Origin: Thermoplasmata archaeon
GTDB taxonomy: Archaea > Thermoplasmatota > Thermoplasmata > SG8-5
Reading direction: 5' to 3'
DNA length: 43,721 nucleotides
NCBI GenBank assembly: GCA_046485165.1
Contig: JAWOHM010000083.1
Location: 1-43,721, forward strand
The notes below the pieces were generated by a model, which was given only the letters and a program-made list of their open reading frames with translations, was not told the DNA's origin and ran no database searches. Below are positions 3,879-17,952 of this stretch, piece after piece. Positions within the stretch are counted from its first letter, which is position 1. Each line of letters starts with the position of its first letter. The translations under genes and the position numbers were made by a program.

Positions 3879-4289
3879 TTTACTATCCTCCTTACCATTC
3901 TCAATTTGTGGGAACCGGCCGCATTTGAACAATAACGGCACGAATCCGTTTGTCACTATCGTATATGTTTTTGACCCTATTTAATATTTCTGCAATATTC
4001 TCTTTATCGGTATTAAAGGGTTTTGATGCAATGGTATTAATTGTTTTTGCCGATAAATCCGCTCCGCGACAATCGGGGCAAGCGCTCCGGGGGTGCGGCA
4101 TTCTTTTTTGCCAGCCGAGAGAATTTTTGCCTCGGCGCCGCTTTTTTCAATAAAATTATTGTATTCAAACAATAATAATATGTGGTGTGGATTCAGCAAA
4201 TTATAAATAAGAAGCTAACATATCCTTTTTTACAAAAATTACTTTATCATAATATAGCATTGATAAAGCAAGACCGGGAGAGGAAGGAT
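3879..4289. promoter_or_regulatory. AT-rich divergent control region between the two giant S8-family genes
   Basis: This 411-bp block is visibly AT-rich next to GC-rich coding DNA. TATA-like runs include aaattataaataag (about 4198-4211) and cataatatagc (about 4249-4259), about 30-35 nt before ATG 4290. There is a palindrome TTATTGT-N6-ACAATAA (4156-4175) and a hairpin GCCGAG-N11-CTCGGC (about 4113-4135). SD-like GGAGG or GGAGAGGAAGG precedes each start. Confidence 0.5.
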
Positions 4290-13400: not shown

Positions 13401-13916
13401 ATACTGACAGTGAATTACGTCACTGATACTGGCGGAAGGAACTGGGGCGCGATAGGCCTGATGATAGGCCTGTTGATAATCGGCCTGATACTCGGGATAT
13501 TGCTGGCTCCCATCGTCCTGGGATTGTTCGGTGACAAGGAACCGGCACCGGAAGCGGAAGTGCCGCCGGAAGGTGAGGATATACTATCGGAATCGGGCAT
13601 GCCGCCTGAGGAATTCCCCGAAGGCGAGGCCCTGCCCGAAGGTGAGGCAGAGCCCGCCAGCGTCCCGGATGGCGAGGAACAGCCGGCGATGGATGATGCC
13701 GAGATAGCCGATGCCGAGACAGAGCCCATTCCCGCCGAGGAGTCAATTCCCGAGGAACTGCCAGCCGAACCCGTGGCAGAGACGGAAGAGCTCCCTCCCG
13801 AGCCTGCGCCGGCCGAAGAGGACCCCAGGATAGCAAAGCTCACGCAGGCATACGAGTCCGGGAAGATATCCAAGGAGCTATACGAGAAGAACCTGGCGAA
13901 ATTCAAGGGCCAGTAA
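4290..13916 (+). CDS. Giant (about 3208 aa) membrane-anchored surface protein. It has a subtilase-like scaffold split by a beta-propeller insertion, two parallel beta-helix modules, a PPC-like domain, Ig-like repeats, a TM helix, an acidic tail and a SHOCT-like end.
   Basis: The track ORF is 4182..13916. ATG 4290 is preferred because it has an SD-like ggagaggaagg upstream and the signal-like MPTNKSTSFVCVMMTAALIWSSFGVGLLSAPAMVEAEA begins there. Motifs seen: GVTVAVADTGID (Asp codon 4629), SPYHGWPVAF (His codon 4704), FISPAGNDGSG (Asn codon 7791) and WKGSEMATAVTTGVMALI (8055-8110). WD40-like strings include SPDGTVLAAGS, FSPDGTSIALGLSNGKVQLIN and SGSDDGTVIFWN. NosD/PbH1-like repeats, a PPC-like DLDLAVFMDG...DYIVKVLAY segment, Ig-like AGN..xxxFTVDT repeats and the TM helix GLMIGLLIIGLILGILLAPIVLGLF are also present. 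Confidence 0.85.
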   Translation: MPTNKSTSFVCVMMTAALIWSSFGVGLLSAPAMVEAEAIELNDVSGQMSEGTPTSTQKPGFNEMEVSGDGYRSNSYGGWSYDPASAPANWSFRDAHNVPQTGYTGEGVTVAVADTGIDFGLLNLAGKYMVDDDPESPYHGWPVAFDAYGLPEFILAKEARPDMGGIANTTLNGTGPFDIEHTIKVDGQKDFTRNELVSEDKMDDVKTSGTASGYEFDLTELWATRDADFWYAGLKTRYGAMNRTFGFALDFDGPASGSIDDPHGNLLDFEASHSAPIEQVSYSPIKNLVASCAASGSDIATTKSYEVNSVKIWDVDGALVRALPNEQYPVFSAIWNPNGTLLAYETTMEIVVYETNTWTEVHRVEHSSSPTTSYYREAMSFSPDGTVLAAGSIEATNRIQILNVVTGETLRPLVPSPAMSVVFSPDGTSIALGLSNGKVQLINSTNYQYTGLLESSDTSAVETLAWDPDMKFIATGRNLGGQVEIWNLTNGNNSCQWGDGASVIENITIMNNTGNRINEIDRFFFRGIPNEVNVSGIESYQISTNYSQNLQYSAIMPSGQNFTWGMRVWVRNPLGTEDELTGGAAEAIVYRNVDGSGIQQGVWTPPNRTLSATDSLVIRIYQGSDVPVPDQLVTEFTTHLFGNINGTIASLNSSAWRVNYFTRRNMASIETAMAGHDVNSPVNTIKWTDSQIISGSDDGTVIFWNPVTFTATSTKESRYNSPVLSLDIKPGTGELFVGTQDCTVRKYPATWTNEPIPFAAHKPDIMIYIRYEREYYNQNMELTVFDEIGEPDVYKWNGAEWLKTTMDEIFGKSFYKGNLAGEWTEHGFIEIALPRNFTAYPDQYEMYINAFICGDNASRPQDTVPSDCNVPSVNVDWSGTRMTTLSAWGKVEMQKVALNHSAIASVRPLDNRSYHFGYHPSGALTNLFGSALPMIVTESATAGIWDRVYVDMNLDYVIDSNDPFVDKDNPLLTVDIWDYDPVSRTAVPGEDGVPDISGGLLYFIADGENLMPYSERVSDILVDAERVLIPFGTTDNPWNIPRNGEVVAFFGDFDYDSNQDIVLSSGTKMASAIAGSGLTEGLFSPIEGVSPNITFLPICNAHYDLPMALYFAVEGYDGIPNSGDEAQIVSVGPYVTGYGNGLDSTTQFVEYQVSRTNNSAVFISPAGNDGSGYGTVAAPCGTNTLVVGFAEDNTFIASGGDVHHFGQVSELSSRGPTAAGLAKPDVIALGIGEVDTPLVISKSLQNAVGGKSQEVWKGSEMATAVTTGVMALIFESYAEKHGGAYPSTQVAMDIIRSSATDLGYDPLAQGAGFVDALAAVRTAKNEEGLVISAQKTSFGNTFGSSYDSFINVLAPGENSALPMNIQNPTNSSKNVNYGFEYMTRTKADEMTQIIESSSLDGFKGDISGMVSIDAELVKVTAQTDYVWTEPWVNGTGVDVKDFASVSGSFFMKLWDWVDAQSPGDPKHGIIDTDDDLSYLTGVDYGHVNSMICTLSNPHRSLAGKLVVEIKADMAAGSSIPDRPWKITVESFVTTSMDWFDTSKTAASIAGGNTDTVNLNVDVPADAQSGTYSGAFVASYGIKEVNWTQNITPAAIDAEFLTSWNAASKGNYWDGDITTPHPIDYGKFDYHPLATPADTYSTSRTPMPPILIVGNANFTEGNGVLRGDGSVADPYIIENYDIGGTTHKHGIEIMDTDAHFIIRNCAIHGRTDTMNGISMNNVTNGVIRESEVYTNTGSGIYILDSNGLLIENNRIEGNDQMGIVISGSIAVSSDIIVQDNDISLSVTTILLSYANNITIIGNDLHHSALGMELYTIVDNLIAGNSFHNISMYCMYLYGVQRNEISSNWFDGFSDVVPSLWLDSTSDPVGNATINNIISGNDFVNCVATHAYDDDPGATNNWTGNYWGGSYGINDGGSGSGVADNAQETGPVASARDYYVPRVPITIEANAGFTPANGVVSGNGSEPNPYVIAGWGLNNSGSPHAILIQDTTAHFVIMDCLIYGNATGSGIILSNVANGTVRSNEFHTLADAIHVEESIDFSIIMNNIHDSATAIHVLESELGMISYNDISSCIHGIYLQSSTSCELSCNQIAGNALTGIFNEFSDESIIKDNTIIGVTKDGIHLKESGDCELTFNNLTSNGYGIHLSNATGINELNNNNFFGNTVHACDDFTYEQIVSLVKLPNTRVTDINVEIVVMKPDGSIEELGPGNYTIYQKAGMIEMAVPVRLDQFRMDVDRAFYIWANYTYFSNTGIVPITLNVMASTTAEFSFGDMNATETPNIMPVWGLRAGQGNSLESGDRRYFYVNVPNQGRFGPGQAENFYLYTELMWGLNRSDINIVVYGKGGAPISGQVAPYVMSKLGGSEEKADFSPTTATGGPKDILVTSFNHEILAICVSSKTFNGSGDSLTRFEGRGGWLKLGETSPKTWTNSLVGSMDVSIQSNLELSSGIYASIVGPAQGARTTEDIYQDDLSLYDLSTMEGWLTMNAVAGFTKVFTVENALSWDVHIFGDATCPDLDLAVFMDGLNGQPKDGIAQWQEIITQDDMDFESYGQTYGTGRYAYSADADADEAIKFISPPNGDYIVKVLAYTVNAAPGHFDLEVKTIFAGVEGYKLLSVNTQYTDENATSGTYLNASAVKRFDVRTFNVLWSFPEDTKDDVYGGIFVLGIPEAPQLLVFSIDIVLDREAPLLFPDFTGPNSIVSNNRPTISAKIEDFERGEIDPNGAKVIFDGVDITSIATISIPLTENSAELEAYWSGNIIYKPAGPLSEGGHNIFVEVKDKAGNARSISWGFTVDTTRPFITINGPVETINTNSRAYRLEGATEASSTLSIAGVTGAVRQRSDNTFTIDLELEEGANLLTIRSTDQANNVHEVSRTLILDTQPSTFKRVVALDGTTTNRRTTGIYGEMSEPGSLQINGMPVRVNSDGTFRHEAISLIEGRNPQVLAFTDLAGNVAYNYMNITLDTAAPVLTLTDIDATVYSEALNITGKTEAGVASLTINGWLAAVDSAGNFQQSLRLSPGTNTIVVETKDRAGNSAQEILTVNYVTDTGGRNWGAIGLMIGLLIIGLILGILLAPIVLGLFGDKEPAPEAEVPPEGEDILSESGMPPEEFPEGEALPEGEAEPASVPDGEEQPAMDDAEIADAETEPIPAEESIPEELPAEPVAETEELPPEPAPAEEDPRIAKLTQAYESGKISKELYEKNLAKFKGQ
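5100..6540 (+). other. WD40/beta-propeller-like repeat region inserted between the His and Asn motifs of the subtilase scaffold
   Basis: Repeated SPDG/WxPxG plus hydrophobic-strand patterns: VKIWDVDG, AIWNPNGTLLAYET, MSFSPDGTVLAAGS, VVFSPDGTSIALGLSNGKVQLIN, LAWDPDMKFIATG, VEIWNLTNG, SGSDDGTVIFWN, LSLDIKPGTGELFVGTQDCTVRKY. Confidence 0.6.
9226..10800 (+). other. Two tandem right-handed parallel beta-helix (PbH1/NosD-like) modules
   Basis: Both modules open with a similar header. Module 1 has PPILIVGNANFTEGNGVLRGDGSVADPYIIENYDI (from about 9226). Module 2 has PRVPITIEANAGFTPANGVVSGNGSEPNPYVIAGWGL (from about 10105). Each is followed by periodic xxNxIxxNxxxGIxL repeats. Confidence 0.65.
13441..13913 (+). 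other. C-terminal TM helix, Pro/Glu-rich acidic tail and SHOCT-like terminal motif
   Basis: NWGAIGLMIGLLIIGLILGILLAPIVLGLFG is followed by KEPAPEAEVPPEGED...EELPPEPAPAEEDP and then RIAKLTQAYESGKISKELYEKNLAKFKGQ. The last segment fits the pattern of the short C-terminal SHOCT domain. Confidence 0.55.
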
Positions 13917-13925
13917 TCGAATAAT

Positions 13926-13958
13926 GGGCGGGGAAACCCCGCCCCTTTTCTCTATTTT
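13926..13958 (+). terminator. Hairpin plus T-rich tract after the giant gene
   Basis: GGGCGGGG-AAA-CCCCGCCC (13926-13944) is followed by cTTTTcTcTaTTTT, 10 nt after the stop codon. Confidence 0.65.
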
Positions 13959-14026: not shown

Positions 14027-15244
14027 TCAATCCCTTAATATCGCATCGAACGCCCTCATGCACCTGACCACCCACACCTCTTCCTTTGTCAGGCCCTTTG
14101 TGTCAATGGTCTTCCTGATCTCATCGGAGTTGACCAGCTTGATGGCGAGCGGGTGGCCCTGGGTCATGGCGAACACCCTGTCCCCGTCCTCCGGGTCCAT
14201 GCCCATGGATGTCATGAGCCTCATAGCGCTATCCCTTTCCAACCCTTTCAAAACCAGCTCGTTGCCCCCATCCATTCCCGGGAATGTCATGAGCGACTCC
14301 CTGTCCCTGGTCATGATGATGATGGTGGAATTTTCCATCTTATGCGACTCCTCGCAGACAAGGTGCACGAATTGCATGACCTCCTTTTTCAGGTCGAATA
14401 TGTTGTCCAGCACCATCACCGTATCGCTGTCCCGGATGTCCCTGAAGAGGGCGGCCGCCCCCTGCCCGACATCCACATCCCTCGTCACCCTCAGGTATTT
14501 CCTGAGCTCGTTTCTTCCCAGATGGACAAGGAATTCGGAGATGCGCTCGAGCATGCTGCGCACTGAATCCCACTCGTGGGCCGAGTACCACATGATGTTC
14601 TTCCTGCCCTCGAATTCTTTCAGGACCTTCCATCCGAGCGAGGTCTTGCCTATGCCCTTGATGCCGCTTATGACCAGCAATCTCTCCCCGTTCCCTATCC
14701 TTTCTCGGAGAAATCCCATCTCCGCGGCACGGCCTATGAAATTGATTGGGATTGGCAGCACATCCAGGTTGGATATGAACCCCCTGCCGGCTTCTCCGGC
14801 GAGGGATGCTTCGAGAACGACGCCGTCCCTGAAGTAGGCCATTATCACCGAGGATGGCGTGGCATTCTTCGCATTGAACAGGATGTCCTGGATGGTGAGG
14901 CTCTTTTCCGCGCCCTCCAGGTCCCTGAACATGACACTCTGCCCCTTGAGCTTCGAGATGAGGCCCAGGGACATCTCCATGCCTTTGGCGGTTAGGGAGA
15001 AAGCCTTCCTCTTCCTCTTGAGGCCACCGATATGGACGAGCGCCTCCTCCACATACCCATCCCCGAGCAGATTGCCCGTCGCCCTCGGAACATGGTTTAT
15101 CCGTATCCCGATGGCCTCTGCGATGCCTTCCTGTGTCTGGCCGAGGGATGCGCCCTCGTTCACCGGGTCCATGCTGAAGTCCCTGAGATGGATGAGTATG
15201 CGCTCGTTCACGCTGAGGTCTTCTATTCGCATCAAATAGGGCAT
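14027..15244 (-). CDS. Winged-helix DNA-binding domain fused to an NB-ARC/STAND-like P-loop NTPase, with no C-terminal sensor repeats (405 aa)
   Basis: The N-terminal roughly 95 aa look like a wHTH (LGQTQEGIAEAIGIRINHVPRATGNLLGDGYVEE...KRKRKAFSLTAKG). Then come Walker A ISGIKGIGKTSLG, Walker B VMVLDNIFD, an RNBS-B/sensor-like TIIIMTRDRE, LVLKGLERDSAMRLM and a GxP motif TQGHPLAIKLV. Spacing is typical of NB-ARC. The protein ends about 37 aa after the GxP motif. Confidence 0.7.
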   Translation of the reverse strand: MPYLMRIEDLSVNERILIHLRDFSMDPVNEGASLGQTQEGIAEAIGIRINHVPRATGNLLGDGYVEEALVHIGGLKRKRKAFSLTAKGMEMSLGLISKLKGQSVMFRDLEGAEKSLTIQDILFNAKNATPSSVIMAYFRDGVVLEASLAGEAGRGFISNLDVLPIPINFIGRAAEMGFLRERIGNGERLLVISGIKGIGKTSLGWKVLKEFEGRKNIMWYSAHEWDSVRSMLERISEFLVHLGRNELRKYLRVTRDVDVGQGAAALFRDIRDSDTVMVLDNIFDLKKEVMQFVHLVCEESHKMENSTIIIMTRDRESLMTFPGMDGGNELVLKGLERDSAMRLMTSMGMDPEDGDRVFAMTQGHPLAIKLVNSDEIRKTIDTKGLTKEEVWVVRCMRAFDAILRD

Positions 15245-15333
15245 TCGGCACAGCGTATATTAATGTTGGCGAATCTCCGGTGACATCCCGAAGATTTAAC
15301 TACTTTCATCCTTTATTATGCCATGGTGATAAC

Positions 15334-16440
15334 ATGGAACCCCGCGTCAAGCGCATTTATGAGAATCTCGAAAGATTGAATGAGAAATCCCCCGATGTCA
15401 TAGTCCTCGCCAATGCCACCGAGCCGATGCTGGACATGACGTTCTTCTACGTGACGCGGCTGGAGGTCGGCCGGTACGAGGGCAGCATCGCTTTTCTTTT
15501 CCCGGACGGTAAATTGTCCATGGTCACATCCCTGCTGGAGGCCGAGAGCGCCTCGAAGGGTGATTTCGAGCTCCATGTTTTCAAAACGCTCAACGAGCTC
15601 GTGGAGATAGTCGAAAAGATGCTGAAGGACGCCAAGAGCATCGGAATAAACTCAGATGAGCTGACCTTCAAATCCTACAATTTCATCAGGGAGCATGCCG
15701 GAAAGGGCGCGGAGATATTTGATGTCTCGAAGGCGATAAAGGCCACCAGGCTGGTGAAGGACGAGGCCGAGATAGACACCATGAGGGAGGCATGTCGCAT
15801 CGCATCCGTGGTCGCGGACAGGATAACCGGCATTGCCAAGGCTGGGATGAAGGAATATGAGGTCGCGGCCGAACTCTCATACATGATGCAGAAGCTGGGT
15901 GCTGCAGGCCCGTCGTTCGAGACCATATCCGCCTTCGGAAAGAACAGCGCCGAGCCGCATTACAGCGCCGGCGACGTGGTACTGAAGGATGGCGATTTCA
16001 TGCTCCTGGACTTCGGTGCGCTTTACAGAAAATACTGCTCGGACATAACAAGGACATACTTCTGCGGCCAGGCATCGAAGAAACAGAGGGAGATGTACGA
16101 GACAGTCCTGGAGGCGCAGAGGCGCGCCCTGGATGCGATATCTGTCGGGGAACCATGCAGCAAACCTCACATGGTTGCGGCCGAGTACATAGATTCCACC
16201 GAGTACAAGGGCCTTTTCACCCACGGCCTCGGGCACGGCCTTGGCCTCGCGGTCCACGACGGTGGCGGATTGAATCCCAGGGCCGCCGACACCCCGATGG
16301 AGGAAGGCATGGTTTTCACGGTCGAGCCAGGTGTCTACGTGCCCGGGTTCGGCGGTGTGCGCATCGAGGATGACATAGTCATCAGGAAGGATGGCCCCGA
16401 GTTGCTGACCAGCGCCAAGAAGGAGCTCATCGAGTTCTAG
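15334..16440 (+). CDS. M24 family Xaa-Pro aminopeptidase/dipeptidase
   Basis: The track ORF starts at 15280. ATG 15334 (MEPRVKRIYENL) is preferred. The pita-bread fold metal-ligand context DFGALYRKYCSDITRT, HGLGHGLGLAVHD and EPGVY..GFGGVRIEDD is present. Confidence 0.85.
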   Translation: MEPRVKRIYENLERLNEKSPDVIVLANATEPMLDMTFFYVTRLEVGRYEGSIAFLFPDGKLSMVTSLLEAESASKGDFELHVFKTLNELVEIVEKMLKDAKSIGINSDELTFKSYNFIREHAGKGAEIFDVSKAIKATRLVKDEAEIDTMREACRIASVVADRITGIAKAGMKEYEVAAELSYMMQKLGAAGPSFETISAFGKNSAEPHYSAGDVVLKDGDFMLLDFGALYRKYCSDITRTYFCGQASKKQREMYETVLEAQRRALDAISVGEPCSKPHMVAAEYIDSTEYKGLFTHGLGHGLGLAVHDGGGLNPRAADTPMEEGMVFTVEPGVYVPGFGGVRIEDDIVIRKDGPELLTSAKKELIEF

Positions 16441-16691: not shown

Positions 16692-17465
16692 ATGGTGAGC
16701 CATATGAGAATAATATCCTGGAACGTGAATGGGATCCGCGCAATCGCCAAGAAAGGCTTTTTGAATTGGGTGGCCGCAGCCCAGCCAGACATCCTCTGCA
16801 TACAGGAAACGAAGGCATGGCCGGAGCAGGTGCCCCCGGAGATACAAAATCCGGTAGGTTTCCATTCCTACTGGTCCCAACCCTCAAAAAAGGGCTACAG
16901 CGGCGTGGTCACGTTCATCCGGGACCGGCCGGGTGCGGTATCGCGTTCAATCGGCGTTGACGAGTTCGATTCCGAGGGCAGGGTGGTGATGGCCGATGCG
17001 GGCGAATTCATTTTGTTCAATGTCTATTTTCCGAATGGGAAGGCCAGCCCGGAGAGGCTGCGGTACAAATTGGCCTTCTATGACCGCTTCCTTGAGGCCA
17101 TCGAGGCGGAACGAAAGCGCGGCAAACCCGTCATCTTCTGCGGGGACCTGAACACCGCTCACAAGGCCATAGACCTGGAGCACCCCAAGGCCAACGAGAA
17201 TGTGTCTGGCTTCCTGCCCGTGGAAAGGGCATGGATGGACAAGGTAATCGAGCATGGTTATGTAGACACATTCAGGCATTTTGACAAGTCCCCGAAAAAG
17301 TACACATGGTGGGATTACAAGACCGGCGCCAGGGAAAGGAACGTCGGTTGGAGGCTGGATTATTTCTTTGTCTCGGATGAGATGCTGCCCCGCCTCGGAA
17401 ATGCCTTCATAATGTCCGATACCATGGGCTCGGACCACTGCCCGGTGGGCATCGAACTGCGATGA
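16692..17465 (+). CDS. xth: Exodeoxyribonuclease III (AP endonuclease, EEP fold)
   Basis: MRIISWNVNGIRA, LCIQETK, FCGDLNTAH, WWDY and SDHCPV are classical Xth/ExoIII motifs. The start could also be ATG 16704. Confidence 0.9.
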   Translation: MVSHMRIISWNVNGIRAIAKKGFLNWVAAAQPDILCIQETKAWPEQVPPEIQNPVGFHSYWSQPSKKGYSGVVTFIRDRPGAVSRSIGVDEFDSEGRVVMADAGEFILFNVYFPNGKASPERLRYKLAFYDRFLEAIEAERKRGKPVIFCGDLNTAHKAIDLEHPKANENVSGFLPVERAWMDKVIEHGYVDTFRHFDKSPKKYTWWDYKTGARERNVGWRLDYFFVSDEMLPRLGNAFIMSDTMGSDHCPVGIELR

Positions 17466-17559: not shown

Positions 17560-17952
17560 ATGCTTAATTCAACCTTGAAAGGGGGTAAAACTTTGGCAAA
17601 GGAAAAAGAAACCACAGAGAAGGCAGACAAGGCAGACAAGGCAGACAAGACAGACAAGGCAGGCAGGACAGACAAGGCAGGCAGGACAGACAACACGGTG
17701 TACATAGGCAAGAAACCGACAATGAGCTACGTATTGGCCGTAGCCACGCAATTCAACAGCGGCTCCGACAGCGTGACCATAAAGGCCAGAGGCAGGTCCA
17801 TCAGCACGGCAGTGGATGTTGCAGAGATTGTCCGGAACAGATTCGTCCAGGGATTGACCGTGGACAATATTAGGATTTCCACCGAGGTCCTGGAAGGCGA
17901 GGAAGGCAAGACATCCAACGTCTCTTCCATCGAGATATTCCTCAAGAAGTGA
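17560..17952 (+). CDS. albA: Alba chromatin/RNA-binding protein with a charged repeat N-terminal extension
   Basis: The C-terminal roughly 90 aa ([50 protein letters not shown]...EIFLKK) match the Alba fold pattern. The start is uncertain between ATG 17560 and the SD-preceded TTG 17593. Confidence 0.85.
17622..17693 (+). repeat. 8 tandem 9-bp units (GGCAGACAA / GACAGACAA / GGCAGGCAG) inside the alba 5' coding region
   Basis: Read directly: 3x ggcagacaa, then (gacagacaa ggcaggcag) x2, then gacagacaa. These encode [23 protein letters not shown]. Confidence 0.9.

Follow-up and report, generated by a model that had tools for sequence, protein, structure and literature searches.

A STAND-lineage NTPase of Thermoplasmata that stops short of the ADP latch and carries an altered Walker B motif

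The STAND switches (signal transduction ATPases that have numerous domains), including the NLRs (nucleotide-binding receptors with leucine-rich repeats), are understood as ADP-latched: they are closed by the histidine of an MHD motif in the winged-helix domain (WHD) and released by a sensor. In the stretch of DNA analyzed here (the window; 43,721 nucleotides, contig JAWOHM010000083.1 of a Thermoplasmata archaeon), one gene encodes a protein that a preliminary description called a minimal STAND NTPase, with an N-terminal winged helix and without a sensor. What is such a protein, and how might it act, if the parts that hold and release the switch are missing? [quoted passage not shown] A conserved natural lineage in which the nucleotide pocket is kept, although latch, sensor and catalytic acid are gone, offers a test case for the core alone, that is, for the nucleotide-binding domain and the adjoining helical domain (NBD-HD); it also bears on how STAND transcription factors of the MalT, AfsR and PH0952 types gave rise to simpler relatives. 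We found no description of the short clade in the literature. The coordinates of the features are collected in Table 1.

The preliminary description credited the protein with the full, ordered NB-ARC motif set, and five motifs are indeed present in order: GIKGIGKTS (Walker A, residues 194-202), VMVLDNIFD (Walker B, residues 276-284), IIIMTRD (sensor 1, residues 308-314), LKGLERDSAMRLM (a conserved strand-helix segment, residues 332-344) and GHPLAI (the GxP motif, residues 363-368); the distance from GHPLAI to the end of the protein is 37 amino acids, as that description had estimated. The set is not full, because ARC2/WHD with its MHD-type histidine is absent and because Walker B reads D-N instead of D-D or D-E. 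Membership of the STAND lineage is upheld by sequence profiles. Pfam NB-ARC (PF00931) gives 28.6 bits against a gathering score of 23.5, with residues 187-372 aligned to profile positions 18-202 of 248, and 17 of 20 family members match it; the family is thus not an ordinary archaeal ATPase family unrelated to NB-ARC, the outcome that would have spoken against the first assignment. The Pfam families AAA_16, AAA_22, nSTAND3 and ATPase_2 (archaeal ATPase) stay below their own cut-offs for the window protein, and the sole NCBIfam match is to the N-terminal NTPase part of FxSxx TPR STAND (TPR, tetratricopeptide repeat). A profile of the family matches PH0952 of Pyrococcus horikoshii (PDB 6mfv) with an E-value of 9e-23 over the NBD and the helical domain; the next matches, to a TPR protein, MuB, Avs4 (E 1e-3), Apaf-1 and Dark, have E-values of 4e-5 or weaker.

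PH0952 is also the top fold match. With the whole AlphaFold2 (AF2) model as query, Foldseek lists 6mfv first, followed by plant resistosomes, Apaf-1, CED-4, MalT and Orc1/Cdc6; VIA likewise places 6mfv at the top (Z 17.0 over 206 residues), with ZAR1, Cdc6 and MalT within one Z unit. In the ESM Atlas, the matches are unnamed Thermoplasmatota clusters or clusters automatically named 'Orc1-like AAA ATPase'. The fold alone cannot separate STAND proteins from initiator AAA+ proteins, so the sequence profile decides the lineage.

What is missing is best seen against the canonical arrangement, in which the WHD is the STAND-specific part of the NOD, its histidine clamps ADP, and this histidine together with the arm and sensor holds the ADP-bound closed state (PMC6468293). 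An exhaustive HMMER search returned 1,381 cluster representatives at E <= 1e-3 (151 at E <= 1e-30), and homologue lengths are bimodal: short forms have 393-427 amino acids and long forms 717-1,086. The short proteins stop exactly at the C-terminus of the profile, whereas the long proteins extend for 370-670 more residues in the form of TPR arrays (families such as TPR_12 and TPR_MalT). The terminal helix of the short forms aligns with ..L[ST]xxEkxLLxxASVYRYPV.., the first WHD helix of the long forms (H8); the long forms run on from this helix through the remaining WHD, and the short forms stop there. At least 45 of 92 long forms match a strict pattern for the latch, H[DE]ΦΦ[RK]x[FY], and do so where an MHD-type latch would be expected (a median of 86 residues past GxP), whereas none of 80 short forms reaches this region. 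In agreement, the AF2 model has a single helix after the helical domain, and the rest of the WHD, the arm and the TPRs are missing; at E <= 10, Pfam finds no TPR, WD40, LRR or other repeat family in the window protein. The earlier statement that there is no TPR, WD40 or LRR sensor is therefore correct and understates the loss, because the WHD latch and the arm are gone as well. With no ARC2/WHD, no arm and no sensor, the protein does not qualify as a STAND NOD when judged by architecture.

The C-terminus is not an artefact. A word-indexed search found about 60 homologues from Thermoplasmatota metagenome-assembled genomes, nearly all 400-409 amino acids long and 28-69% identical to the window protein. 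In a 20-sequence alignment, 35 columns are invariant, including G194, G197, G199, K200, D280, G363, P365 and much of the winged helix-turn-helix (wHTH); T312, R313 and H364 are each conserved in 90% or more of the sequences, and the last 25 residues (GLTxEE..LKAFDxIF) rank among the best conserved. We rejected truncation by a frameshift, a possibility raised with the first description, because both the length and the terminal helix are kept in these homologues.

The second departure from the canonical design is in Walker B. The residue that follows the Walker B aspartate is Asp in 85 of 92 long forms; of 32 short forms, 18 have Asn, 6 Asp and 4 Gly at this position, and Ser, Leu and Glu occur in one each. 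The window protein has D280-N281, and the Asn is nearly invariant in its orthologue group. Three residues further on, the long forms have H or Q and the short forms F or Y. All 92 long forms and 31 of the 32 short forms have the Walker A lysine (G194-x4-G199-K200-T201), and in both classes there is little or no variation in the upstream FxGR arginine (R172) and in GxP. The sensor-1 arginine occurs in 90 of 92 long versus 23 of 32 short forms.

In a tree of 124 sequences (32 short, 92 long), 31 of the 32 short forms make up one clade with SH-like support of 96, nested among the long forms; with the C-terminal and Walker B columns removed, the short and long labels change 3 times, compared with about 28 times when the labels are shuffled. 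The short forms are thus essentially one lineage, so the pairing of truncation with the Walker B change does not amount to many independent correlations; the tree is compatible with a single origin and suggests something close to one evolutionary event followed by diversification. From this nested position, the protein belongs by descent, not by architecture, among the PH0952-like regulators.

The N-terminal winged helix of the preliminary description is confirmed by several methods. The AF2 model of the whole protein (mean predicted local distance difference test score, pLDDT, 86.9) has four parts and ends in a short helical bundle: a wHTH (residues 1-99), a small alpha/beta domain (about 100-150), a P-loop NBD (about 165-335) and the helical bundle (337-404). 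The wHTH gives VIA Z scores of 9.8, 9.5 and 9.4 to MarR-family chains, AF1382 and BldR. The N-terminal 161 residues were also folded alone for fold comparison (AF2 pLDDT 85); Foldseek relates this model with probability 1.0 to the MepR-DNA complex, ZitR, SlyA and AspA, that is, to regulators of the MarR/ArsR/PadR type; the best E-value is 1.5e-3, so that no match passes E <= 1e-3. Both the recognition helix (RINHVPRA) and the basic wing (GGLKRKRKA) hardly vary among the aligned orthologues; R48, H51 and R54 persist in 29-32 of 32 short forms versus 30-55 of 92 long forms. The middle domain is common to the long paralogues, whose alignments are continuous from about query residue 10 to about 375; PH0952 apparently lacks it, as judged from residue arithmetic (the P-loop is at 139-144 there and at 194-200 here).

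We favor, with a probability of roughly 0.55, the reading that the protein is a latch-free, ATP-binding, weakly hydrolyzing DNA-binding regulator derived from STAND transcription factors of the PH0952/MalT type. According to this proposal, a deletion of everything beyond the first WHD helix would have cost the protein its WHD latch, its arm and its TPR sensor. The MarR-like wHTH and the small middle domain would have stayed, together with the NBD and the helical domain, in which P-loop, sensor-1 arginine and GxP are intact. When an amide replaces the catalytic acid of Walker B, AAA+ and STAND proteins still bind nucleotide but hydrolyze it more slowly; the window protein would then bind ATP and hydrolyze it slowly or not at all. 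With neither an ADP-clamping histidine nor an autoinhibitory arm and sensor, the ADP-locked closed state of a canonical STAND would not be reachable. The absence of latch and sensor and the hydrolysis-impairing Walker B together lead us to expect permanently 'open' NOD-like behavior, that is, an ATP-bound, multimerization-competent state. ATP-dependent head-to-tail self-association might then array the wHTH domains on DNA, as in AAA+ initiators, and control could be exerted by nucleotide availability, by the middle domain or by the expression level of the protein itself. The likeliest targets would be its own leaderless promoter and that of a divergent gene for an M24 Xaa-Pro peptidase. Two precedents are relevant: the STAND transcription factor AfsR is autoactivated when its MHD latch is destroyed (bioRxiv 10.64898/2026.09.02.748808), and the medium SARPs (Streptomyces antibiotic regulatory proteins) are transcription factors with an NB-ARC domain and without TPRs (PMC10972967). 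A more far-reaching proposal, which we hold as doubtful, is that an entire clade of STAND proteins went back to an AAA+-like NBD-HD and nothing more, by shedding WHD latch, arm and sensor and exchanging the catalytic acid of Walker B. The outcome would be an ATP-trapped switch, a constitutively open, oligomeric transcription factor dependent on the ATP level, which became a core regulator, possibly of Xaa-Pro peptide catabolism, in an uncultured order of Thermoplasmatota.

The STAND gene is monocistronic and lies head-to-head with the M24 gene. In nine aligned orthologous intergenic regions, two back-to-back TATA boxes, the TAGCG block and GGTG are kept, and the length of the spacer varies. 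Orthologues of the STAND protein begin at Met5 of the window ORF, and a gene caller also gives this 401-amino-acid version. Because the TATA box is 23 nucleotides upstream of the Met5 ATG (15232) and merely 11 nucleotides from the first ATG, and because of the orthologue starts, the product likely has 401 amino acids and is translated from a leaderless mRNA. The M24 pairing occurs at every family f1 locus with enough flanking sequence, in family f2 (L022) and in one family f3 genome (L023). This gene order is suggestive of the M24 gene as a regulatory target of the STAND protein; the wHTH-NBD protein and the prolidase gene would be the first candidate regulator-target pair in these uncultured archaea, for which genetics is not available. 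The M24 ORF as listed starts at a GTG (15280), and orthologue alignments begin at its residues 12-19; these alignments and the preceding GGTG make ATG 15334 the likely start.

Several points count against a DNA-binding regulator of this kind. There is no inverted repeat in 15180-15400 and no conserved operator in the nine aligned intergenic regions; family f4 and the other f3 genome lack the M24 pairing, which may therefore reflect inheritance of gene order and not regulation. In structure, the NBD-HD is as close to Orc1/Cdc6 as to plant NLRs, all values lying within 1 Z unit. Six of 32 short forms retain the Walker B Asp, and the co-occurrence of truncation and Walker B change appears to be close to a single evolutionary event. 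Finally, DNA binding and targets are predictions for every family member, PH0952 included, and the presumed effect of D-to-N on hydrolysis is carried over from AAA+ and STAND proteins in general. The importance of the finding is also limited, since the evidence is computational and truncated NLRs and sensor-less SARPs are existing precedents.

Comparison with known systems places the protein nearest to PH0952. In both, the effector is a wHTH at the N-terminus, the NBD and the helical domain are homologous (23-25% identity), and FxGR, Walker A, the sensor-1 arginine and GxP are shared. They differ in that PH0952 has the ADP-contacting WHD H382, the arm, the TPRs and a D-D Walker B, whereas the window protein has none of the first three, has D-N and contains the extra middle domain of about 50 amino acids between wHTH and NBD; the complete PH0952 architecture is found in the long paralogues of the source genome. 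MalT of Escherichia coli and AfsR/SARP of Streptomyces are STAND transcription factors, and medium SARPs combine a DNA-binding domain with NB-ARC and lack TPRs (PMC10427625, PMC10972967). The window protein resembles these regulators in the fusion of a DNA-binding domain to a STAND NTPase as a transcriptional switch, and MalT also in fold (VIA Z 16.1). However, in MalT the HTH is of the LuxR type and lies at the C-terminus, SARPs carry an OmpR-type DNA-binding domain plus BTAD N-terminal to NB-ARC (at E <= 10, Pfam finds no Trans_reg_C or BTAD here), medium SARPs have an NB-ARC domain whereas the window protein lacks the WHD altogether, and all of these regulators are bacterial whereas the window protein is archaeal; the medium SARPs show that sensor-less STAND transcription factors exist, a resemblance of design only. 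ATPase_2 (PF01637, 'ATPase domain predominantly from Archaea') comprises short archaeal P-loop proteins without repeat sensors, is matched by 19 of 20 family members at E <= 1e-3 and is close in fold (2qen, VIA Z 15.1); nevertheless, the window protein scores 16.0 bits against a cut-off of 33.2, the profile matches 2qen with an E-value of 0.18, and the window protein has an N-terminal wHTH.

The distribution of the two forms is relevant to the alternatives. All 22 genomes of the window's order have matches. In 17 of the 22 a match is a close orthologue (E <= 1e-60); completeness of the remaining five is 59-89%. In a sample of the phylum, 98 of 201 Thermoplasmatota genomes match at E <= 1e-25, almost all with long forms; the long architecture is thus widespread, and the close short orthologue is essentially order-specific. 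The source genome (1.83 Mb, about 80% complete) contains a canonical long paralogue, a second short paralogue and a paralogue fragment (Table 1). In the second short paralogue (L003), Walker A is without its lysine (GYGAS), Walker B reads D-C, and GKPP stands where GHPL would be; from these residues it is probably a nucleotide-blind pseudo-NTPase.

Such losses raise an alternative that we judge improbable but the least so, namely that the protein is a partner or modulator of the long paralogues, co-assembling with wHTH-NOD-TPR proteins through NBD-NBD contacts and acting either to lengthen their oligomers on DNA, as a helper, or to restrict them, as a cap or decoy; truncated or helper NLRs of plants are a parallel. 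Each genome of the order does encode several long paralogues, and these have wHTH, middle domain and NBD-HD in common with the short protein; the short forms also progressively lose catalytic residues, up to the Walker A lysine in the second short paralogue; loss of catalytic residues is typical of non-catalytic subunits in mixed AAA+ assemblies. However, short and long paralogues are only 24-32% identical, their genes are not systematically adjacent on the contigs listed for the order's genomes, and the wHTH is more conserved in the orthologue than in the long forms, which suggests a DNA target of its own.

Somewhat less probable again is an initiator- or loader-like DNA-structural ATPase (as Orc1/Cdc6, MuB and TnsC) with a core chromosomal role instead of a gene-specific one, whose winged helix and AAA+-type NBD-HD would bind and remodel DNA when ATP-bound. 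Orc1/Cdc6 proteins likewise join an AAA+-type NBD-HD module to one winged-helix DNA-binding domain in about 400 amino acids, and the folds are close: VIA Z is 16.6 for Pyrobaculum Cdc6, 15.6 for Sulfolobus Orc1 and 14-14.2 for MuB and TnsC, so that about 1-3 Z separate these proteins from the top match. The gene is near-universal in the order and lies among housekeeping genes (M24 peptidase, exonuclease III, Alba), and the automatic Atlas names point the same way. Sequence argues otherwise: the profile E-value for Orc/Cdc6 is an insignificant 0.2-0.3, versus 9e-23 for PH0952, and the tree places the protein inside the TPR-bearing STAND regulators. Its winged helix is N-terminal and MarR-like, whereas that of Orc1/Cdc6 is C-terminal and of another type (the AF2 model has none at the C-terminus), and the close orthologue is found in the window's order only, other sampled genomes of the phylum having mostly long forms.

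An antiviral STAND (Avs-like) immune sensor, or the remnant of one, is very improbable: the protein belongs to the superfamily, its family profile weakly matches Avs4 and its model gives VIA Z 14.6 to Avs3, but PADLOC has no family at E <= 10 for it, neither Pfam nor the AF2 model shows a sensor domain or an effector of the nuclease, protease, SIR2 or TIR kind, and its stable housekeeping synteny in three families and the presence of an orthologue in most genomes of the order are unlike defense islands. A decaying, functionless fragment of a long STAND gene, to which the truncation, the non-canonical Walker B and the in-frame TAA in one orthologue (G019) might point, appears effectively refuted by the conservation pattern, that is, by length and C-terminal helix kept down to 28% identity, by invariant columns that include Walker A and GxP, and by diversification of the clade into several subclades.

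Table 1. Positions of the STAND gene, its domains and motifs, the surrounding elements and the paralogues in the source genome.
Feature	Coordinates	Strand	Remarks
Whole ORF	14027..15244	-	405 aa from first ATG; stop codon 14027-14029
Winged helix-turn-helix, MarR/ArsR/PadR type, N-terminal	14948..15220	-	residues ~9-99; AF2, VIA, Foldseek, conservation
Middle domain, small alpha/beta	14795..14947	-	residues ~100-150; beta-hairpin + three helices; AF2 models
P-loop nucleotide-binding domain	14240..14752	-	residues ~165-335; FxGR (R172), Walker A, Walker B, sensor 1
Walker A	14642-14665	-	inside P-loop domain
Walker B, VMVLDNIFD	14393-14419	-	Asn281 at catalytic-acid position
Sensor 1 (T312-R313)	14303-14323	-	inside P-loop domain
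Helical domain HD/ARC1	14087..14239	-	residues ~336-386; GxP G363-H364-P365 at 14150-14158
C-terminal amphipathic helix, GLTxEE..LKAFD	14030..14086	-	residues 387-405; conserved; aligns with WHD helix H8 of long paralogues
Divergent promoter region	15233..15333	.	101 nt, between STAND and M24 genes
TATA box of STAND gene	15256-15263	-	TTAATATA on minus (coding) strand; conserved TAGCG block flanks
TATA-like TTTAAC of M24 gene	15295-15300		
GGTG before M24 ATG 15334	15325-15328		conserved
M24 Xaa-Pro peptidase/prolidase gene	15334..16440	+	Creatinase_N + Peptidase_M24; head-to-head with STAND gene
Hairpin between giant gene and STAND gene	13926..13944	.	perfect 8-bp GC stem GGGCGGGG-AAA-CCCCGCCC, then T-run; likely bidirectional terminator
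Long paralogue, source genome	L002:1489-3972		827 aa, canonical; D-E Walker B + TPRs
Second short paralogue, source genome (G000:C178)	L003:359-1495	-	378 aa
Paralogue fragment, source genome	L004		at contig end
wHTH-sharing protein, source genome (G000:C49)	L005:1087-1851	-	254 aa; common only in wHTH region

On its other side, the STAND gene meets a giant gene (3,244 amino acids, WD40-containing, ending at 13916), a neighbor that the preliminary description found odd for a sensor-less protein. We rejected a functional tie: the two genes converge, the adjacency is confined to family f1, and the hairpin between them, likely a bidirectional terminator as read from its sequence, marks them as separate transcription units; the M24 pairing is more widely conserved. 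The palindrome TTATTGT-N6-ACAATAA in the promoter of the giant genes occurs once, at 4156-4175, so no shared operator links them to the STAND gene.

In family f4 (L018:5449-8946 and L019:10931-14413), the orthologue is tail-to-tail with a gene for a CarboxypepD_reg/PKD/CARDB surface protein of about 1,160 amino acids, a position that echoes that of the giant surface-protein neighbor in the window's family; tblastn at E <= 1e-5 gives no match between this surface protein and the giant protein. Downstream of the M24 gene are an exonuclease III-type gene (Exo_endo_phos, 16692-17465) and an Alba gene (17560-17952); this block is syntenic in L017, of the same genus, and the exonuclease also follows M24 in L020, up to the contig end. 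The orthologue with the in-frame TAA (L007, G019:C176) has that single stop, and the stretch between it and the M24 gene exceeds that of the other genomes by about 250 nucleotides, which suggests an insertion. Open reading frames of about 257-269 amino acids that resemble L005 occur in nearly every genome of the order at roughly one copy each; this family of about 260 amino acids shares the N-terminal wHTH and beta-hairpin (query residues 9-122), has a different, helical C-terminal half and gives weak HTH_Crp_2 and ENT hints in Pfam.

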